A stretch of 25,240 bases of DNA from an uncultured Candidatus Peribacteria bacterium (GTDB taxonomy: Bacteria; Patescibacteriota; Gracilibacteria; UBA1369; 2-02-FULL-48-14), in assembly GCA_964356405.1 (NCBI GenBank), contig CAYHHJ010000001.1, positions 1 to 25,240 of the forward strand. Direction: 5' to 3'. The position numbers and the translations under genes were made by a program. Below, one piece after another: positions 1-5,799 of the stretch (its first letter is position 1; the number at the start of each line of letters is the position of its first letter). The notes under the pieces were generated by a model. That model was not told the origin of the DNA, searched no databases, and saw only the letters and a program-made list of their open reading frames with translations.

Positions 1-268
1 GGTCAAGGCTTTGCTTCACGGCCTCATTTTTGGACGTCTCACCGGCGGGGATTACAAAGATTTCAGCGAGTAAGCCCTCCTCACGCAGGCGGCCTAGCAG
101 GGCCGTTCCGTGGTGAGATTCCACAGTTGAATCGGTTATCAACGCATAGCGATAGGCAGGTGCTTTTTCTTTCAAAAGCTCAGGAAGTTTTGCGAGCAAA
201 CCTTGCCCCACATAGACTTCAGTAATCTGAGATTTTTCAGCGACGGTGTAGCTTAGATTTGGGTTCAT
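1..268 (-). CDS. aroB: 3-dehydroquinate synthase, N-terminal part (runs off the left edge)
   Basis: Not in the ORF track. Manual translation from ATG at 268 gives MNPNLSYTVAEKSQITEVYVGQGLLAKLPELLKEKAPAYRYALITDSTVESHHG...EIFVIPAGETSKNEAVKQSLD, which contains the AroB ITDxTV and IPAGExSK motifs. The start overlaps the aroF stop (ATGA). Confidence 0.93.
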   Translation of the reverse strand, partial: MNPNLSYTVAEKSQITEVYVGQGLLAKLPELLKEKAPAYRYALITDSTVESHHGTALLGRLREEGLLAEIFVIPAGETSKNEAVKQSLD

Positions 269-1308
269 TTGTTGAGGAAGTTTTTCATTTCAAGAAGTAA
301 GGCTTCGGTGTCCTCCCAACTGATGCATGGATCGGTCACGGAAAGGCCCGCGCGATTCACCGATTCCGGCGTGTGATCTTCGAGCTTTTGATTGCCAGAG
401 AGGAGGAAGCTTTCGAGCATGAATCCTTTTACAAATTGATTCAATTCGGGGTACAGCGCAAGGGTGGAAAGCACCTCACGCACCACATGAATTTGTTGAA
501 GCGGATTTTTTACACCATTGAGTTTGCAGTTGTCGTGACTCGCATCGATCACAATGGCTGGGTTTTTGACGCGAGCTTTTTCGAGGCACTCCTTGGCTTT
601 GTACAAATCTTCCAGGTGATAGTTGGGCTCGGTGAGACCACCGCGAAGCACCAAATGTGCGTAGGGATTTCCTTGCGTTTTCACCTGCATTCCATCGAAT
701 ACGGCGGTGTGGCCGTGTTGAGCGGCGAGCACGCTGTTCACCCCTAGTTCGACGTTTCCGCTGGTGGGATTTTTCATTCCCACGGGACACTCCACGGCAG
801 ATGCAAAAATGCGATGTTCCTGATCCTCGGTACTGCGTGCGCCGATGGCAAGCCAAGAAATGAGTTCGATGAATCCTTTGGCGTTGTTAGTGAAGACCGC
901 TTCGTCTGCAATGGGAAGGCCAAGCTCGATCACTTCAACCATGAGGCGGCGGGCATAGTAGACCCCTGCTTCAATGTCCGGTTCCTCGAAAGGATTGGGT
1001 TGATTCACGGGCCCCAACCAGCCTTTTGTGGTGCGTGGTTTTTGGATGTAAAGACGCATCACCAGTTTGAGACTGTCTTTCACTTTTTCATTCAGTTCCA
1101 CGAGGCGTTTTGCATACTCGATTACGGCTTCATGAGGCCAGGCCGAGCAGGGGCCAACCACCACCAATTTGCGAGAATCTTCCCCCGCGAGTATGGCTTG
1201 AATTTCTTTTCGATCTTGAGCGATTCGTTCGAATGCTTTTTCGGAAAGGGGAGTGGCTTGAATGATGTCTTCAGCCCGGGGTAGATTTTTTTGAATGGAA
1301 TAGCGCAT
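265..1308 (-). CDS. aroF: DAHP synthase, type I-alpha (3-deoxy-7-phosphoheptulonate synthase)
   Basis: Motifs GPCS, KPRT, IGARS, GMKNPTSG, LRGG, DASH, MLES and TDPC; the four metal ligands (C, H, E, D) are present. Confidence 0.95.
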   Translation of the reverse strand: MRYSIQKNLPRAEDIIQATPLSEKAFERIAQDRKEIQAILAGEDSRKLVVVGPCSAWPHEAVIEYAKRLVELNEKVKDSLKLVMRLYIQKPRTTKGWLGPVNQPNPFEEPDIEAGVYYARRLMVEVIELGLPIADEAVFTNNAKGFIELISWLAIGARSTEDQEHRIFASAVECPVGMKNPTSGNVELGVNSVLAAQHGHTAVFDGMQVKTQGNPYAHLVLRGGLTEPNYHLEDLYKAKECLEKARVKNPAIVIDASHDNCKLNGVKNPLQQIHVVREVLSTLALYPELNQFVKGFMLESFLLSGNQKLEDHTPESVNRAGLSVTDPCISWEDTEALLLEMKNFLNK

Positions 1309-1317
1309 AGATGAAAG

Positions 1318-2085
1318 TTAAGAGTTGAGAAGGGTTTCCCACAGGCGAATTTGTTCCAAAGCCTGTGCTTTAAACATAGTGAGTCCGGATCGGGTTTCGG
1401 CGCCCGCAGCTTTGGCTTCGCGAAGCAGGCGCGTTTCCTCAGGATTATAAATAATATCAAAGACTACTTGGCCAGGGTGCAGGAAGCTTGCGTCGATAGG
1501 AGTTTGATCTACTTCGGGAGCGAGCCCCAGTGGGGTGGCATTGATTAGTACGTCAAAAGTTTGGGTGGCCAAATCAGCATCCTCAATGGCGGTACCGCCA
1601 AAGTGATTAACCAAATCTTCTGCACGTTCACGATTGCGATTTAAACAGAATAGTTCCCCACCTTCATCGTTCACAAATGCGGCGACAGGTTTTGCAACAC
1701 CTCCAGCGCCCAGGAGTAAAACCCGTTTTCCTTTGAGTGGTAGGCCTTCTAGGGCGACTGAAATGCCAAGGTAGTCGGTGTTATATCCAAGGAGTTTCCC
1801 GTCTTTTTGGAGTACCGTGTTGACACTTTGGAGCCTCTCTGCCAGTGGGTCTATTTCATCCAAAAAAGGAAGGATGCTTTCTTTGAAAGGAAGGGTTACG
1901 GCAGTGAGACCAATCTTTAAAGTGCGCAGAGTTTGGACCAATGCGAACAGGTCTTCGTTTTCGAAAGCGAGTAGCACGGCATCGAGGCTGCGCCGTGCAT
2001 ACTCAGCATTGTGAAAAGAGGGGCTGAGGCTGTGGCTCAAAGGAAATCCAATGACCGCATTGAGTTTGGTTTTACCGGTGATCAT
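1318..2085 (-). CDS. aroE: Shikimate dehydrogenase
   Basis: Motifs IGFPLSHSLSP, VTLPFK, SVNT, NTD, GAGG, NRNRERA, NATPLG and DIIYNP; lies within the aro operon. Confidence 0.95.
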   Translation of the reverse strand: MITGKTKLNAVIGFPLSHSLSPSFHNAEYARRSLDAVLLAFENEDLFALVQTLRTLKIGLTAVTLPFKESILPFLDEIDPLAERLQSVNTVLQKDGKLLGYNTDYLGISVALEGLPLKGKRVLLLGAGGVAKPVAAFVNDEGGELFCLNRNRERAEDLVNHFGGTAIEDADLATQTFDVLINATPLGLAPEVDQTPIDASFLHPGQVVFDIIYNPEETRLLREAKAAGAETRSGLTMFKAQALEQIRLWETLLNS

Positions 2086-2513
2086 AGTTGTGAGACTAAA
2101 AAGGTGAGCGCTTCTTCATAAGACTGAATTTGTTTGCCGTAGAATTGTTTTAAACAGGCAGGTTCCGTGACCGAAATGGCTCGCCAAGGTTCTCTGTTTT
2201 TGACGTCTGAGAGATGCACTTCAACGCAGGGTACGCCGCTGTCTATGAGTGAATCGTGGAGTGCATAGCTGGAGTGAGTGAGAGCGCCGGGATTGATCAA
2301 AATACCCACTGCATTTCCGGATTTTTCTTGGATCCAATCAATGAGGCTACCCTCGTGGTTTGACTGAAAACATTCAAGTTCATAGCCTAGTTCTTCGGCT
2401 CGTTTGTGCAACTGCGCTTCGAGTTCTGGAAGCGTTAAGCTTCCATAGTGAGCAGGGTCGCGCTTCCCTAGCTGGTTTAAGTTTGGCCCGTGAATGAGAA
2501 GTATTTTTGTCAT
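2082..2513 (-). CDS. aroQ: Type II 3-dehydroquinate dehydratase
   Basis: Motifs HGPNLNQLGKRDPAHYG, FQSNHEG, INPGALTH and EVHLS...RE; ATGA overlaps with both neighbours. Confidence 0.96.
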   Translation of the reverse strand: MTKILLIHGPNLNQLGKRDPAHYGSLTLPELEAQLHKRAEELGYELECFQSNHEGSLIDWIQEKSGNAVGILINPGALTHSSYALHDSLIDSGVPCVEVHLSDVKNREPWRAISVTEPACLKQFYGKQIQSYEEALTFLVSQL

Positions 2514-3043
2514 TGGGTGAGGTTCAAGTGAGTAAGGACTTCTTCGGTCAGAGAGTCTATGGAGCCCTCGTTTTTTACTGTGATTTTGGCTAAGCGGTCA
2601 AACACAGGTATCCGTTCCGCCCACAGTTCCTGGAATTGGTCAAAAGCATCTTCTTCTTGTGAGAAAAAGGCTGGCTTTCCGTTGATCATGATGCGTTCAA
2701 AAACGATGCTTCGAGGTGCCGCCACGTGGACAAGTTCATGTCCTTGCAAGAGTATTTGATTCTGCTCCATGAGTGGAGTTCCACCACCCAAGGCTAGGAC
2801 GAGTGGAACTTCACCGGCGAGAATTTCCGTCAACGCTTCGCTTTCCAATCCTCTGAAAAACGCTTCTCCATGCTTGTGAAGAATCTCACGGCAGCTTTCT
2901 TCTTGCCCGCATTGTTTAGAGTGCAGGCGTACGATTTCAGCGTCCAAATCTACGAAGGGTCGCTTGAGTCGAATGGAGAGGTTTTCACCAAGGAGAGATT
3001 TCCCCGCGTGTTTGAACCCGATAAGAACTAGATGAGAAGACAT
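2510..3043 (-). CDS. aroK: Shikimate kinase
   Basis: Walker A GFKHAGKS, plus DLD, GEAFFRGLE and ALGGG motifs; operon context. Confidence 0.92.
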   Translation of the reverse strand: MSSHLVLIGFKHAGKSLLGENLSIRLKRPFVDLDAEIVRLHSKQCGQEESCREILHKHGEAFFRGLESEALTEILAGEVPLVLALGGGTPLMEQNQILLQGHELVHVAAPRSIVFERIMINGKPAFFSQEEDAFDQFQELWAERIPVFDRLAKITVKNEGSIDSLTEEVLTHLNLTQ

Positions 3044-3053
3044 GGGGCGTAAG

Positions 3054-4337
3054 TTAATCGAAGTAAAGTGTCGCGGTGAGTGCTTTTAAATGATCTCCAA
3101 AGAGGGGGTAAGTCTTACGGAGTCCTTCGGCGGTGTCAATAACGGTTTCGCCGTCGGCTAAAAGTCCGGCCAAAGCCAGGGCCATGATGGTACGGTGGTC
3201 GTTAAAGCCCTGTACCTTTGCTCCATGCAAGGGGGAGGGGTGAATGACGAGGCCGTCTGCAAGTTCTTCGATGTGTGCCCCCATGGCCTGTAAGCCCGCC
3301 GTTATCGAGTGGAGCCGATCCGTTTCTTTGAATCGAGCCTGGGGAACGTTTAAAATTCGAGTCACTCCTTCCGCCTGAGTTCCTAGCACGGCAAGGGTGG
3401 GGACTAAGTCTGGGATATCGTTGGCGTCGATGTCGAGCCCTTTTAATGAGGCTTTGTGAACACGAATGTTGTGTGAAGAAATAGATAGTTTTGCGCCCAT
3501 TTTTTCCAAAATGCTCAGAAGGCGTCGGTCTCCTTGCAGATCTTTTGAGTCCAATCCTTCAAGGTTTATTTCGCCGTCGAACAGGGCACCTGCTGCCAAG
3601 AATGTGGAGGCGGAGGAGTAGTCGCCCGGAACATAGTAATCGATGGGTGAATAGACCCGTCCAGCTCTTAAATGAAAGTGATCAACGCTCCCCTCGCGAA
3701 TGTGCTCAAATCGGATGTTTTGTGAGCTCAGCCACTCCAAGGTGAGGTCTAGGTAAGGGCGTTCGTTGAGATTCTCGACGTGAAGTTCTACGTCACTTTC
3801 GGCGTAGAGGCCGGAAAGCAAAAGGGCGGAAATGAATTGAGAAGTGAGACCGTTCACTAGGGTTGAACCACCTTTGAGCGGGCCACGTATCGCGATAGGC
3901 CACGTCGAAGAATCAATGTGACAGCCCAAATCAGAAAGGTTCTTTAGCAAATCTTGAAGGGGGCGCTTTCGCATTTGTTCATCGGCGTTTATTTGCATGA
4001 GCAGCGCGCCTTCGGTCAAAGCCAAAATGGGAAGTACGAAGCGGGTAGTGATGCCGGAGTTGGCCGTCCACACGGTATTTTTTAGCGGTCGCAAAGGAAA
4101 ACCCCGGCTCTCCACACGGATGCAGTTTTCGTGACAAGTGGCCGTTTCAATCTTGGCTCCCAAATCTTTACAAACAGTGAGTGCCGCTGAAACATCTTCA
4201 GATTCAGGAAGAAAATGAAGGGTGGATACGCCCTTTGCCAGGGTAGCCACAAGCAGAGCCCTCACGCTTTGGGATTTTGAGCCCGGAATGCGTAAGGTTC
4301 CGTTGAGTGCGGTGCTGGGAAGAACGTGTAGGTTCAT
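3054..4337 (-). CDS. aroA: EPSP synthase (3-phosphoshikimate 1-carboxyvinyltransferase)
   Basis: Motifs PGSKS, SQFISALL, DxSSA, QGD, DIPD, RFKETDR, DHR and KTYP. I chose the ATG at 4337 over the track's TTG at 4343, which lies in the attenuator U-tract. Confidence 0.96.
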   Translation of the reverse strand: MNLHVLPSTALNGTLRIPGSKSQSVRALLVATLAKGVSTLHFLPESEDVSAALTVCKDLGAKIETATCHENCIRVESRGFPLRPLKNTVWTANSGITTRFVLPILALTEGALLMQINADEQMRKRPLQDLLKNLSDLGCHIDSSTWPIAIRGPLKGGSTLVNGLTSQFISALLLSGLYAESDVELHVENLNERPYLDLTLEWLSSQNIRFEHIREGSVDHFHLRAGRVYSPIDYYVPGDYSSASTFLAAGALFDGEINLEGLDSKDLQGDRRLLSILEKMGAKLSISSHNIRVHKASLKGLDIDANDIPDLVPTLAVLGTQAEGVTRILNVPQARFKETDRLHSITAGLQAMGAHIEELADGLVIHPSPLHGAKVQGFNDHRTIMALALAGLLADGETVIDTAEGLRKTYPLFGDHLKALTATLYFD

Positions 4338-4366
4338 AAACAAAAAGTCCCCGCGAGTGCGAGGCC
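4338..4366 (-). terminator. Attenuator terminator (3:4 hairpin plus U-tract) directly upstream of the aroA start
   Basis: The minus strand reads GGCCTCGC-ACTC-GCGGGGAC-TTTTTGTTT-ATG: a GC-rich stem (one GU pair, one mismatch), a 4-nt loop and a U-rich tail. Confidence 0.8.
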
Positions 4367-4415
4367 AAGAGGGTAAATATTACACACTTCTTAGAGGCCT
4401 CGCTGGTGGGCGAAG
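4359..4415 (-). promoter_or_regulatory. Alternative attenuator helices: 1:2 protector and 2:3 antiterminator
   Basis: Segment 2 GCGAGGCC (4403-4396) is the exact reverse complement of segment 3 GGCCTCGC (4366-4359), which is the terminator 5' arm. Segment 1 CTTCGC (4415-4410) pairs with GCGAGG (4403-4398) across a 6-nt loop. Confidence 0.78.
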
Positions 4416-4450
4416 AATTTAAAGCTGCTAAAGAAGTAAGTGTGTGTCAT
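4391..4450 (-). CDS. Phe-rich attenuator leader peptide MTHTYFFSSFKFFAHQRGL (PheL-like, 19 aa)
   Basis: Manual translation from ATG 4450 to TAA 4391: five Phe and one Tyr in residues 5-13. The 3' end of the ORF overlaps segments 1 and 2 of the attenuator. Confidence 0.85.
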   Translation of the reverse strand: MTHTYFFSSFKFFAHQRGL

Positions 4451-4462
4451 GTAAGTGAAGAA

Positions 4463-4492
4463 AGCCTACTCCCATCTTGAAAAGGCTGTCAA
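4463..4492 (-). promoter_or_regulatory. Sigma70-type promoter for the leader and aro operon
   Basis: TTGACA (4492-4487), an 18-nt spacer, then TAGGCT (4468-4463), ending 12 nt before the leader ATG. Confidence 0.6.
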
Positions 4493-4542
4493 CGCTTTAC
4501 AGTAGGGCGATTTTTGATTAAAAGGGAACCGTACAGTTTAAA

Positions 4543-5799
4543 ATGTCTTTTATGCAAAACATTGAAATCATGGCTCCGGTGGGGTCTTTTGAAGCCCTTG
4601 CGGCGGCAATTCATGCTGGATGCGACAGCATTTACTTTGGGATGGAGCAGCTTAATATGCGAGCCAGAGCTTCCCATAATTTTACTCTGGAGGAGCTGAA
4701 AGAAGTGACTCAAACGTGTAGGGAGCACGGGGTTCGCTCGTACCTCACGATGAATACGTTGCTGTACCAGCACGATCTGATTTTGATGCGCAAAATTCTG
4801 GATGCGGCTAAGGAGGCGGAAGTGTCTGCGGTCATCATCCAAGACATTGCGGCCATTCAGTATGCTAAGTCGATTGGACTGTCCATTCATGCGTCTACAC
4901 AGCTTTCCATTTCTAACTACGAAGCCGTGAAGTTTTATGCACAGTTTGCAGATACCATTGTGCTTGCCCGCGAAGTGGACATGGACATGATGCGTGAGAT
5001 TTGTGCGAACATAGAAAAAGATCAACTCAAGGGTCCGGCCGGCGAGCTCATTCGCATCGAAGTGTTTGTGCATGGGGCGCTTTGCATAGCGCAAAGTGGA
5101 CGTTGCCAAATGAGCCTTATCACCAACAATACTTCAGCACAGCGTGGAGCCTGCCTTCAAGAATGCCGTAAAAAATATCGAGTGATTGATGAGGAAACCG
5201 GGACTGAGATGGTGATCGACAACGAGTATGTGCTCAGTCCCACGGATTTATGCTGTTTGCCTTTTTTGGATAAGCTTGCCGCTACGGGTGTTTCCGTTTT
5301 TAAGATTGAAGGCCGTGGGAAAAGTGCTGACTATGTGAGCAAGGTGGTTCAGGTTTATCGTGAGGCACGTGACGCCATTTTGGAAGGGAGCTTTGGCCAA
5401 GAGAAGGTGGAGAAGTGGATGGAAACTTTGAAAAGTGTGTATAATCGCGGGTTTTCGGAAGGCTACTATTTGGGCCGCAAGCTCCCGGAGTGGAGCGGAT
5501 TTCCCAGGAACAAATCAACGGATGAAAAGATCTATGTTGGCGACGTTAGTCACTATTTTCCTAAGGTTAAAGTTGCGGAAATTAATACTTTGGCGCACGA
5601 AATAAAGAAGGGTGATCGTTTTGTGATCATGGGAAAAACAACCGGTGCCGTGTTTGGAGAAGTTCAGTGTTTGGTGAAGGATGACGTTGAAGTGGAGGAG
5701 TCTGGCAAAAAATGTCTGGTGACCCTACCTTTGGATGAAACAGTTCGTAAAAATGACAAGGTTTATCTCCTCAAATCTCGTGCCATCAATGTCCTTTAA
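4543..5799 (+). CDS. Peptidase U32 family Fe-S hydroxylase (TrhP/PrtC-like), with C-terminal U32_C domain
   Basis: N-terminal APVGSFEAL...AGCDSIYFG; E173-x3-H177, then C181-x6-C188-x15-C204-x3-C208; also HASTQ, VLARE, KIEGR and YNRGF motifs. Confidence 0.93.
   Translation: MSFMQNIEIMAPVGSFEALAAAIHAGCDSIYFGMEQLNMRARASHNFTLEELKEVTQTCREHGVRSYLTMNTLLYQHDLILMRKILDAAKEAEVSAVIIQDIAAIQYAKSIGLSIHASTQLSISNYEAVKFYAQFADTIVLAREVDMDMMREICANIEKDQLKGPAGELIRIEVFVHGALCIAQSGRCQMSLITNNTSAQRGACLQECRKKYRVIDEETGTEMVIDNEYVLSPTDLCCLPFLDKLAATGVSVFKIEGRGKSADYVSKVVQVYREARDAILEGSFGQEKVEKWMETLKSVYNRGFSEGYYLGRKLPEWSGFPRNKSTDEKIYVGDVSHYFPKVKVAEINTLAHEIKKGDRFVIMGKTTGAVFGEVQCLVKDDVEVEESGKKCLVTLPLDETVRKNDKVYLLKSRAINVL

Follow-up and report, generated by a model that had tools for sequence, protein, structure and literature searches.

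Comparative sequence and folding data indicate that the aromatic amino acid operon of an uncultured Candidatus Peribacteria bacterium is very probably headed by a transcription attenuator that works, like trpL and pheL, through ribosomes on a leader peptide, one that would sense charged tRNA-Phe in this genome and tRNA-Tyr and tRNA-Trp as well in its relatives. The element occupies the minus strand between a promoter and aroA in the window, by which we mean the whole stretch of 25,240 nucleotides that was analyzed. To our knowledge, the CPR/Patescibacteria are usually described as lacking amino acid biosynthesis, and almost nothing is known of how they regulate their genes. The locus points instead to a Peregrinibacteria-like lineage that has kept a complete single-operon pathway for Phe (Phe/Tyr), and to a classical ribosome-stalling attenuator that would control this pathway along with trp operons. 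The mechanism is a classical one, apparently newly described in this branch of the Bacteria, and its presence here would extend the known range of leader-peptide attenuation.

A Phe-rich leader between the promoter and aroA

An earlier sequence-only reading of this DNA had placed a promoter with an 18-nt spacer, a 19-codon open reading frame (ORF), three competing helices, and a U-tract before the aroA start codon, and our minus-strand reading of positions 4100-4700 recovered every one of them. The -35 hexamer TTGACA (4492-4487), in whose place most orthologous leaders carry TTGACA or TTGACT, lies 18 nt from the -10 hexamer TAGGCT (4468-4463), and the leader ATG follows 12 nt downstream at 4450. 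The leader ORF, MTHTYFFSSFKFFAHQRGL (4450-4391), consists of 19 codons and a TAA stop codon (4393-4391). Its five Phe codons and one Tyr codon all fall inside nine codons: Tyr5 (4438-4436), Phe6 (4435-4433), Phe7 (4432-4430), Phe10 (4423-4421), Phe12 (4417-4415), and Phe13 (4414-4412).

Four segments of the leader RNA are predicted to pair in mutually exclusive ways. Segment 1, CTTCGC (4415-4410), overlaps the codons for Phe12, Phe13, and Ala14. Segment 2, GCGAGGCC (4403-4396), could pair with segment 1 as an anti-antiterminator or with segment 3, GGCCTCGC (4366-4359), as an antiterminator, and segment 3 serves both as the 3' arm of this antiterminator and as the 5' arm of the terminator hairpin, whose 3' arm is segment 4, GCGGGG (4354-4349). 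The terminator tail is a T-run, ACTTTTTGTTT (4348-4338), that abuts the aroA start codon. A further helix, P0, appears in the minimum free energy (MFE) folds of orthologs and joins codons 2-5 (ACACACTT, 4445-4438) to a stretch directly 3' of the leader stop codon (AAGTGTGT, 4389-4382). The stop codon had been assigned to segment 2 itself; it does lie inside the extended 2:3 helix, but segment 2 ends 3 nt before it, which leaves the stop codon outside the 8-bp core.

The terminator hairpin, CCTCGC-ACTC-GCGGGG, is short (6 bp with one G-U pair; -8.6 kcal/mol), and a terminator scan recovered it together with its T-run independently. The 2:3 duplex of GCGAGGCC with GGCCUCGC is perfect over eight of eight pairs, as had been claimed, and its computed energy is -19.9 kcal/mol, compared with -8.6 for the terminator and with -9.7 +/- 2.4 kcal/mol for shuffled sequence (p = 0.002). 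The fold of this single leader is marginal (z = -1.85; 9/200 shuffles), and the MFE structure of the free RNA in this window is a long 1:4 plus 2:3 hairpin, while orthologs give 1:2 plus 3:4. One sequence by itself would not decide the matter, and the weight of our evidence rests on relatives.

A leader this rich in Phe stands out from its own genome. Our survey took in the small ORFs of 8-40 codons that precede crude gene calls in this genome, 1948 in all, each scored over 8-residue spans, and at least five identical residues per span were found in 19 of them. The sole Phe case among the 1948 (at least five Phe in eight residues) is the aroA leader, which is also the only upstream ORF in this survey to be enriched in an amino acid that fits the pathway encoded behind it. 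The occurrence of a Phe-rich leader before aroA exceeds chance. Leu-, Ile-, Val-, and Thr-rich upstream ORFs were considered as further attenuators and were set aside as chance occurrences, as they precede RimK, RmuC, SLH, and PKD genes.

The operon downstream of the leader

The first structural gene is aroA, encoding EPSP synthase (3054-4337, minus strand; Pfam PF00275, E = 2e-91), and the remaining operon genes in the window, aroK, aroQ (type II dehydroquinase), aroE, the DAHP synthase gene, and the N-terminal part of aroB, follow on the same strand at 2-3043. On another contig of the assembly, C203, lie the C terminus of aroB, prephenate dehydratase (PDT), and a fusion of chorismate mutase (CM) and aminotransferase, and we take C203 by synteny to continue the operon: the unbroken gene orders of relatives G001, G025, and G020 match that of the window plus C203. 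In G001 the order is leader-aroA-aroK-aroQ-aroE-DAHPS-aroB-PDT-PDH::CM-aminotransferase, where PDH is prephenate dehydrogenase. G020 has the same order but a PDH::CM::aminotransferase triple fusion, and the operon of G025 also includes aroC, which in our genome (G000) lies elsewhere, on contig C120. Neither Trp synthase nor prephenate dehydrogenase was found in the assembly of this genome, which is 80.6% complete. The genomes of the group span 0.7-1.9 Mb and use code 11, in keeping with the impression of a CPR-like genome gained earlier from the window.

The attenuator had been described as controlling the whole shikimate operon. The shikimate genes are indeed present, but the operon reaches further, to prephenate dehydratase, chorismate mutase, and the aminotransferase, and the putative unit of control is a Phe supra-operon (Phe/Tyr in relatives) and not the common shikimate pathway alone. 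It is because the operon carries these three functions besides the shikimate genes that a Phe-rich leader fits its product.

Two side observations concern Tyr. The CM-aminotransferase fusion of G000 (locus L039, contig C203, 1249-1863) is without the prephenate dehydrogenase domain that G001 and G020 have at the same position, and at 4420-4418 in the window its leader has a Lys codon (AAA) where close relatives have Tyr (FKFF vs FYFF/FYYF). The pair of differences may reflect a co-loss of Tyr synthesis and Tyr sensing, an anecdotal suggestion drawn from sequence. In 11 related genomes, leaders hold a mean of 1.0 Tyr codons versus 1.9 in relation to the presence of prephenate dehydrogenase, but these genomes are too few and too closely linked by descent to support a correlation. 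In the divergent intergenic region, a terminator-like hairpin and T-run on the plus strand (4493-4509) lie ~25 nt before the start of a U32-family gene (4543 onward, plus strand); they may be due to chance.

Distribution of the leader among relatives

We surveyed 25 loci in the order that carry an aroA of this clade (42-77% identity). An aromatic-rich leader ORF, followed by a hairpin and T-run, precedes aroA in 18 of them, across families f1, f2, and f15; examples of the leader peptides are MTHNFFFNGFYYFAPQRGF, MVHTWFFSGFYFFAQQRGL, MQTTAFYGFFFFFVPRG, MNNPSKTYGYFFYNFSHLKA, and MQHSVNTFGYYFWNFNNVKA. At the remaining seven loci a different gene precedes aroA or the leader has given way to something else, the operon head in G005 being a Trp leader. 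No aromatic-rich leader ORF was found at any of 19 loci of the distant aroA clade (at most 36% identity). A covariance model built from the 18 leaders and run against 151 sampled genomes of the class recovered four more, two of which belong to another order (f41) and stand immediately before a CM-PDT (pheA-like) gene: MNASNNNWFYFYFFSA and MNTCNNTFSFYFYHFSA. In total, 22 genomes from four families and two orders of one class have homologous leaders that are rich in Phe, Tyr, or Trp and share the four-segment layout.

Some loci depart from this pattern. Intact Phe-rich leaders with terminators but no aro genes behind them occur in G013 (L098:1501-1634, minus strand) and G017 (L097:1501-1624, plus strand); downstream of both come small ORFs that have no Pfam matches and then, ~650-700 nt on, rplJ-rplL. 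An origin of these orphan leaders by deletion of an aro operon upstream of rplJ was considered and rejected, for no rplJ follows the operon in G001 or G020; the two units may be remnants of a lost operon or may serve a second function. In G176 (L044), the region upstream of aroA has a hairpin and T-run whose homolog in the congener G177 is the attenuator terminator. In place of the leader ORF stands the 3' end of a gyrB-like gene, and the hairpin seems for this reason to act as the terminator of that gene. In genus g1, to which G000 belongs, four of the seven other genomes (G002, G003, G004, and G006) gave only MurA-like matches and have no aroA of this clade, and the aromatic operon is thus patchy even among close relatives.

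Covariation in the alternative helices

The covariation analysis used a sequence-only MAFFT alignment of the 18 leaders (A2). Helix 1:2 is 90.7% paired across them, with compensatory change at two of its six pairs (AU:7/GC:7 and CG:8/GC:4), and helix 3:4 is 97.6% paired, with compensatory change at four of six. The covariation score, 0.261, compares with 0.07-0.10 when the pairing partners are slid by 1-3 columns, and it is reached by none of 500 shuffles. The T-run is invariant throughout the alignment. Helix P0, only 50% paired over the 18 leaders, is conserved in the close subfamily alone, where it closes the 1:2 hairpin. The sequence-only reading had proposed a search of orthologous leaders for retained Phe codons and covarying helices, and both were found.

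The 2:3 helix calls for a different treatment. When the 18 leaders are forced into one common register, 76% of its positions pair, a value not above the shuffle control; such a count is uninformative, in the MAFFT alignment as in a covariance-model realignment, because the pairing of subfamily B is shifted by one column relative to that of subfamily A. In separate subfamily alignments the helix is 96-97% paired and near-invariant, and so shows little covariation. We therefore examined each leader singly, taking the best duplex between the terminator 5' arm and the region that begins at the last aromatic codon and extends 15 nt beyond the stop codon, with 500 shuffles of the segment 2 region as control. 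The resulting duplexes, at -7.4 to -21.2 kcal/mol, exceed the strength of the terminator hairpin in 22/22 leaders and beat the shuffled regions at p <= 0.05 in 19/22. In all 22 cases the competing helix overlaps the leader stop codon.

Segments 1 to 4 read CUUCGC/GCGAGGCC/GGCCUCGC/GCGGGG in one subfamily, CUUCAG/CUGAAGGC/GCCUUCAG/GAAGGC in a second, and CUUCUC/CUGAGAAG/CUUCUCAG/GAGAGG in a third. Since the three subfamilies build the same design from different sequences, the four segments evidently change together between them. The 22 leaders would offer three independent sequence solutions to one RNA-switch design, a useful resource for the study of attenuator evolution. G042 and G013, in which the leader ORF extends ~7 codons beyond segment 2, fit the simple model less well.

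We considered whether the leader ORF and its hairpins might instead act on translation, by governing access to the aroA start codon or re-initiation, without any real termination. The short terminator stem lends itself to such a reading, as do the end of the hairpin only 11 nt before the aroA ATG, the U-tract that abuts that ATG, and a genome without Shine-Dalgarno (SD) motifs, in which the accessibility of the start site should matter. Among orthologs, however, the hairpin and T-run are kept even though the spacing between hairpin and ATG ranges over 8-50 nt, a pattern predicted by a terminator and not by a mask over the start site, and the T-run is invariant in all 18 leaders. Translational control in place of termination is in our judgment unlikely, although both effects could coexist.

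Conservation of the small ORF over two orders might equally reflect selection on its product: the leader could encode a functional hydrophobic micropeptide, or its RNA could act in trans as a small RNA, with the hairpins as its own terminator and a merely positional link to aroA. The orphan units of G013 and G017, leader plus terminator, persist without aro genes, and trans roles have been reported for a trpL peptide and its attenuator RNA in Sinorhizobium (PMC7298713 and PMC7968998). What is conserved, however, is aromatic composition and RNA pairing and not the peptide sequence, the C-terminal residues of which follow the sequence of the 1:2 helix by subfamily (FAPQRGL vs NFSHLKA). A simple terminator, moreover, needs no competing 2:3 helix over the stop codon, found here in every one of the 22 leaders, and the leader is rich in the amino acids that the pathway behind it makes. 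We regard this explanation as very improbable.

An RNA switch that binds a ligand or protein (riboswitch, T-box-like, or TRAP-like) beside an incidental Phe-rich ORF would share the alternative terminator/antiterminator output that riboswitches and T-boxes also use, but it is scarcely credible, given that no Rfam family matches even at E <= 10, that the span from promoter to terminator is only ~110 nt and nearly all ORF, leaving no conserved aptamer-like noncoding core, and that no feature of these otherwise diverged leaders is better conserved than their clustered aromatic codons. The Rfam search (cmscan, E <= 10) compared positions 4000-4900 with all 4227 families and found no match in the region, the only hit being a sub-threshold CRISPR-repeat match elsewhere in the stretch; a known riboswitch, T-box, or Rfam leader family such as Phe_leader was rejected for the element on this ground. 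Ribosome-mediated attenuation is thus the reading that we develop below.

A model of ribosome-mediated attenuation

From the leader elements, their conservation and covariation, the match between leader amino acid and operon product, and the energetic preference among helices, we infer the transcription start, the stalling of ribosomes, and termination and read-through in vivo as follows. The transcript would start only a few nucleotides upstream of the leader ATG, and ribosome loading would take place on the near-leaderless 19-codon ORF. When Phe-tRNA is sufficient, the ribosome should reach the TAA and cover segment 2, which would let the 3:4 terminator form and stop RNA polymerase at the U-tract before aroA. 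Without translation, P0 and 1:2 would sequester segment 2, with termination again the predicted outcome. When Phe-tRNA is scarce, a ribosome stalled in the Phe cluster, mainly at codons 10-12, would mask segment 1 and leave segment 2 free to pair with segment 3, a pairing preferred at -19.9 vs -8.6 kcal/mol; no terminator would form, and polymerase would read through into aroA-aroK-aroQ-aroE-DAHPS-aroB-pheA(PDT)-CM/aminotransferase.

Thermodynamic modeling with a 27-nt ribosome mask in nine orthologs is consistent with this scheme and with the outcome foreseen in the sequence-only reading, namely a terminator after full translation and a 2:3 helix after a stall within the Phe cluster. A masked ribosome at the stop codon gave the terminator in 9/9 orthologs, and a masked stall at the middle aromatic codons gave the 2:3 antiterminator in 7/9. 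When the masked ribosome held the last Phe codon in its A site, segment 2 was partly covered and the terminator formed. On this footprint model, therefore, it is probably Phe10 to Phe12 that act as effective sensors, and not the whole set of five Phe codons.

The model also depends on how the leader is translated. SD-like motifs are depleted before the genes of G000 (5% at -18 to -4 vs 11% further upstream), which bears out the earlier description of the genome as SD-less. A T/A signal at -12/-11 precedes start codons genome-wide, as is usual where -10 boxes are positioned to give leaderless mRNAs; it suggests that many mRNAs of G000 are leaderless. The 16S rRNA of this genome, with its anti-SD sequence, was not found in the 80.6%-complete assembly. 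In orthologous leaders the -10 box (TAnnnT) ends mostly 7-12 nt before the leader ATG and in some cases 21 nt before it. The SD depletion, the -12/-11 signal, and the closeness of the -10 box to the ATG together argue that the leader ORF is probably leaderless or near-leaderless, with no SD site and a predicted 5' untranslated region (UTR) of 0-6 nt, which for the leader in the window would come to ~5-6 nt.

Relation to known attenuators

The geometry of E. coli pheL, trpL, and pheM had been invoked for this element, and the likeness holds in each respect: regulatory codons are clustered, a terminator is present, the antiterminator reaches the stop codon, and segment 1 lies over the regulatory codons. 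As in pheL-pheA and pheM-pheST (and also trpL and hisL), clustered Phe codons accompany mutually exclusive 1:2, 2:3, and 3:4 helices, a U-tract, and a stop codon beside segment 2. Termination is predicted before the first biosynthetic gene, as in pheL-pheA, and the f41 leaders before the CM-PDT gene, from a sister order of the same class, reproduce the pheL-pheA arrangement itself. The differences from the E. coli leaders are nonetheless considerable. The region has no Rfam match and hence no sequence relationship to them; the element heads a supra-operon of eight or more genes beginning with aroA, not pheA alone; Phe is mixed with Tyr and Trp in the leaders of relatives; the leader ORF has no SD site and a very short predicted 5' UTR; and the element belongs to a CPR bacterium whose genome measures ~1.1-1.4 Mb.

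The suggestion that no such attenuator was known on the common shikimate pathway in a CPR-like, SD-less genome stands only in part. In Corynebacterium glutamicum, the aroR leader peptide, with a Phe-Tyr-Phe motif, subjects the aroF (DAHP synthase) operon to attenuation and reacts when Phe is limiting (Neshat et al. 2014, in the summary given in PMC11802643), and with aroR-aroF attenuation of the common aromatic pathway already has a precedent. The likeness between the two is functional only: our element, like aroR, would attenuate common aromatic pathway genes through a leader peptide, but C. glutamicum belongs to another phylum (Actinobacteria), the first gene and the operon content differ, and the aroR motif is much shorter. 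The aroR case also has transcriptome evidence; ours is a prediction from sequence and folding.

Attenuators have likewise been predicted by comparative genomics in Actinobacteria (PMC1262725) and, for hisS leaders, in Firmicutes (PMC2965389). Our prediction resembles these in resting on a conserved leader ORF, regulatory codons, and alternative hairpins, and it differs from them in concerning CPR/Patescibacteria, which neither covers. According to the survey of 2010 (PMC2965389), the only groups with known leader peptides had until then been the Proteobacteria and Actinobacteria, to which the survey itself added the Firmicutes. Our literature search turned up no relevant paper on leader peptides or transcription attenuation in CPR/Patescibacteria, an absence within the literature searched that is no proof that such reports do not exist; this second part of the novelty claim stands to that extent.

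Trp leaders and a possible aromatic regulon

Attenuation by ribosome stalling requires tight coupling of transcription and translation and a means of sensing charged tRNA. In G005, a member of the same genus, a promoter, the ORF MTKSINSQSVRKWWRLLQKMRDLC, and a strong terminator (L059:4495-4690, minus strand) head the operon trpDCF-trpB-trpA-aroA. Leaders with WW and terminators also stand before trp genes in G001, G019, G017, and G021. The Trp leaders, at L059 and also at L090, L091, L093, and L094, have the tandem-Trp motifs KWWR, SWWR, and IWWT/IWWA and come from five genomes of the same family. Because such leaders and terminators precede trp operons, attenuation appears to be in general use in this lineage.

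A broader reading can be offered tentatively, as a possibility that we consider somewhat doubtful. Attenuation in this CPR lineage might operate as a rule on leaderless or near-leaderless leader ORFs without SD sites, with ribosome loading tied to the 5' end of the nascent RNA; the Phe/Tyr and Trp leaders together might form a lineage-wide aromatic regulon; and the orphan leaders of G013 and G017 might have a second role as trans-acting small RNAs or peptides. The leader described here also provides a small regulatory element that lends itself to experiment, taken from a lineage that is uncultured and would initiate translation without SD sites. Two further WW matches, in L063 and L065, were rejected as leaders, since they lie out of frame inside trpG.
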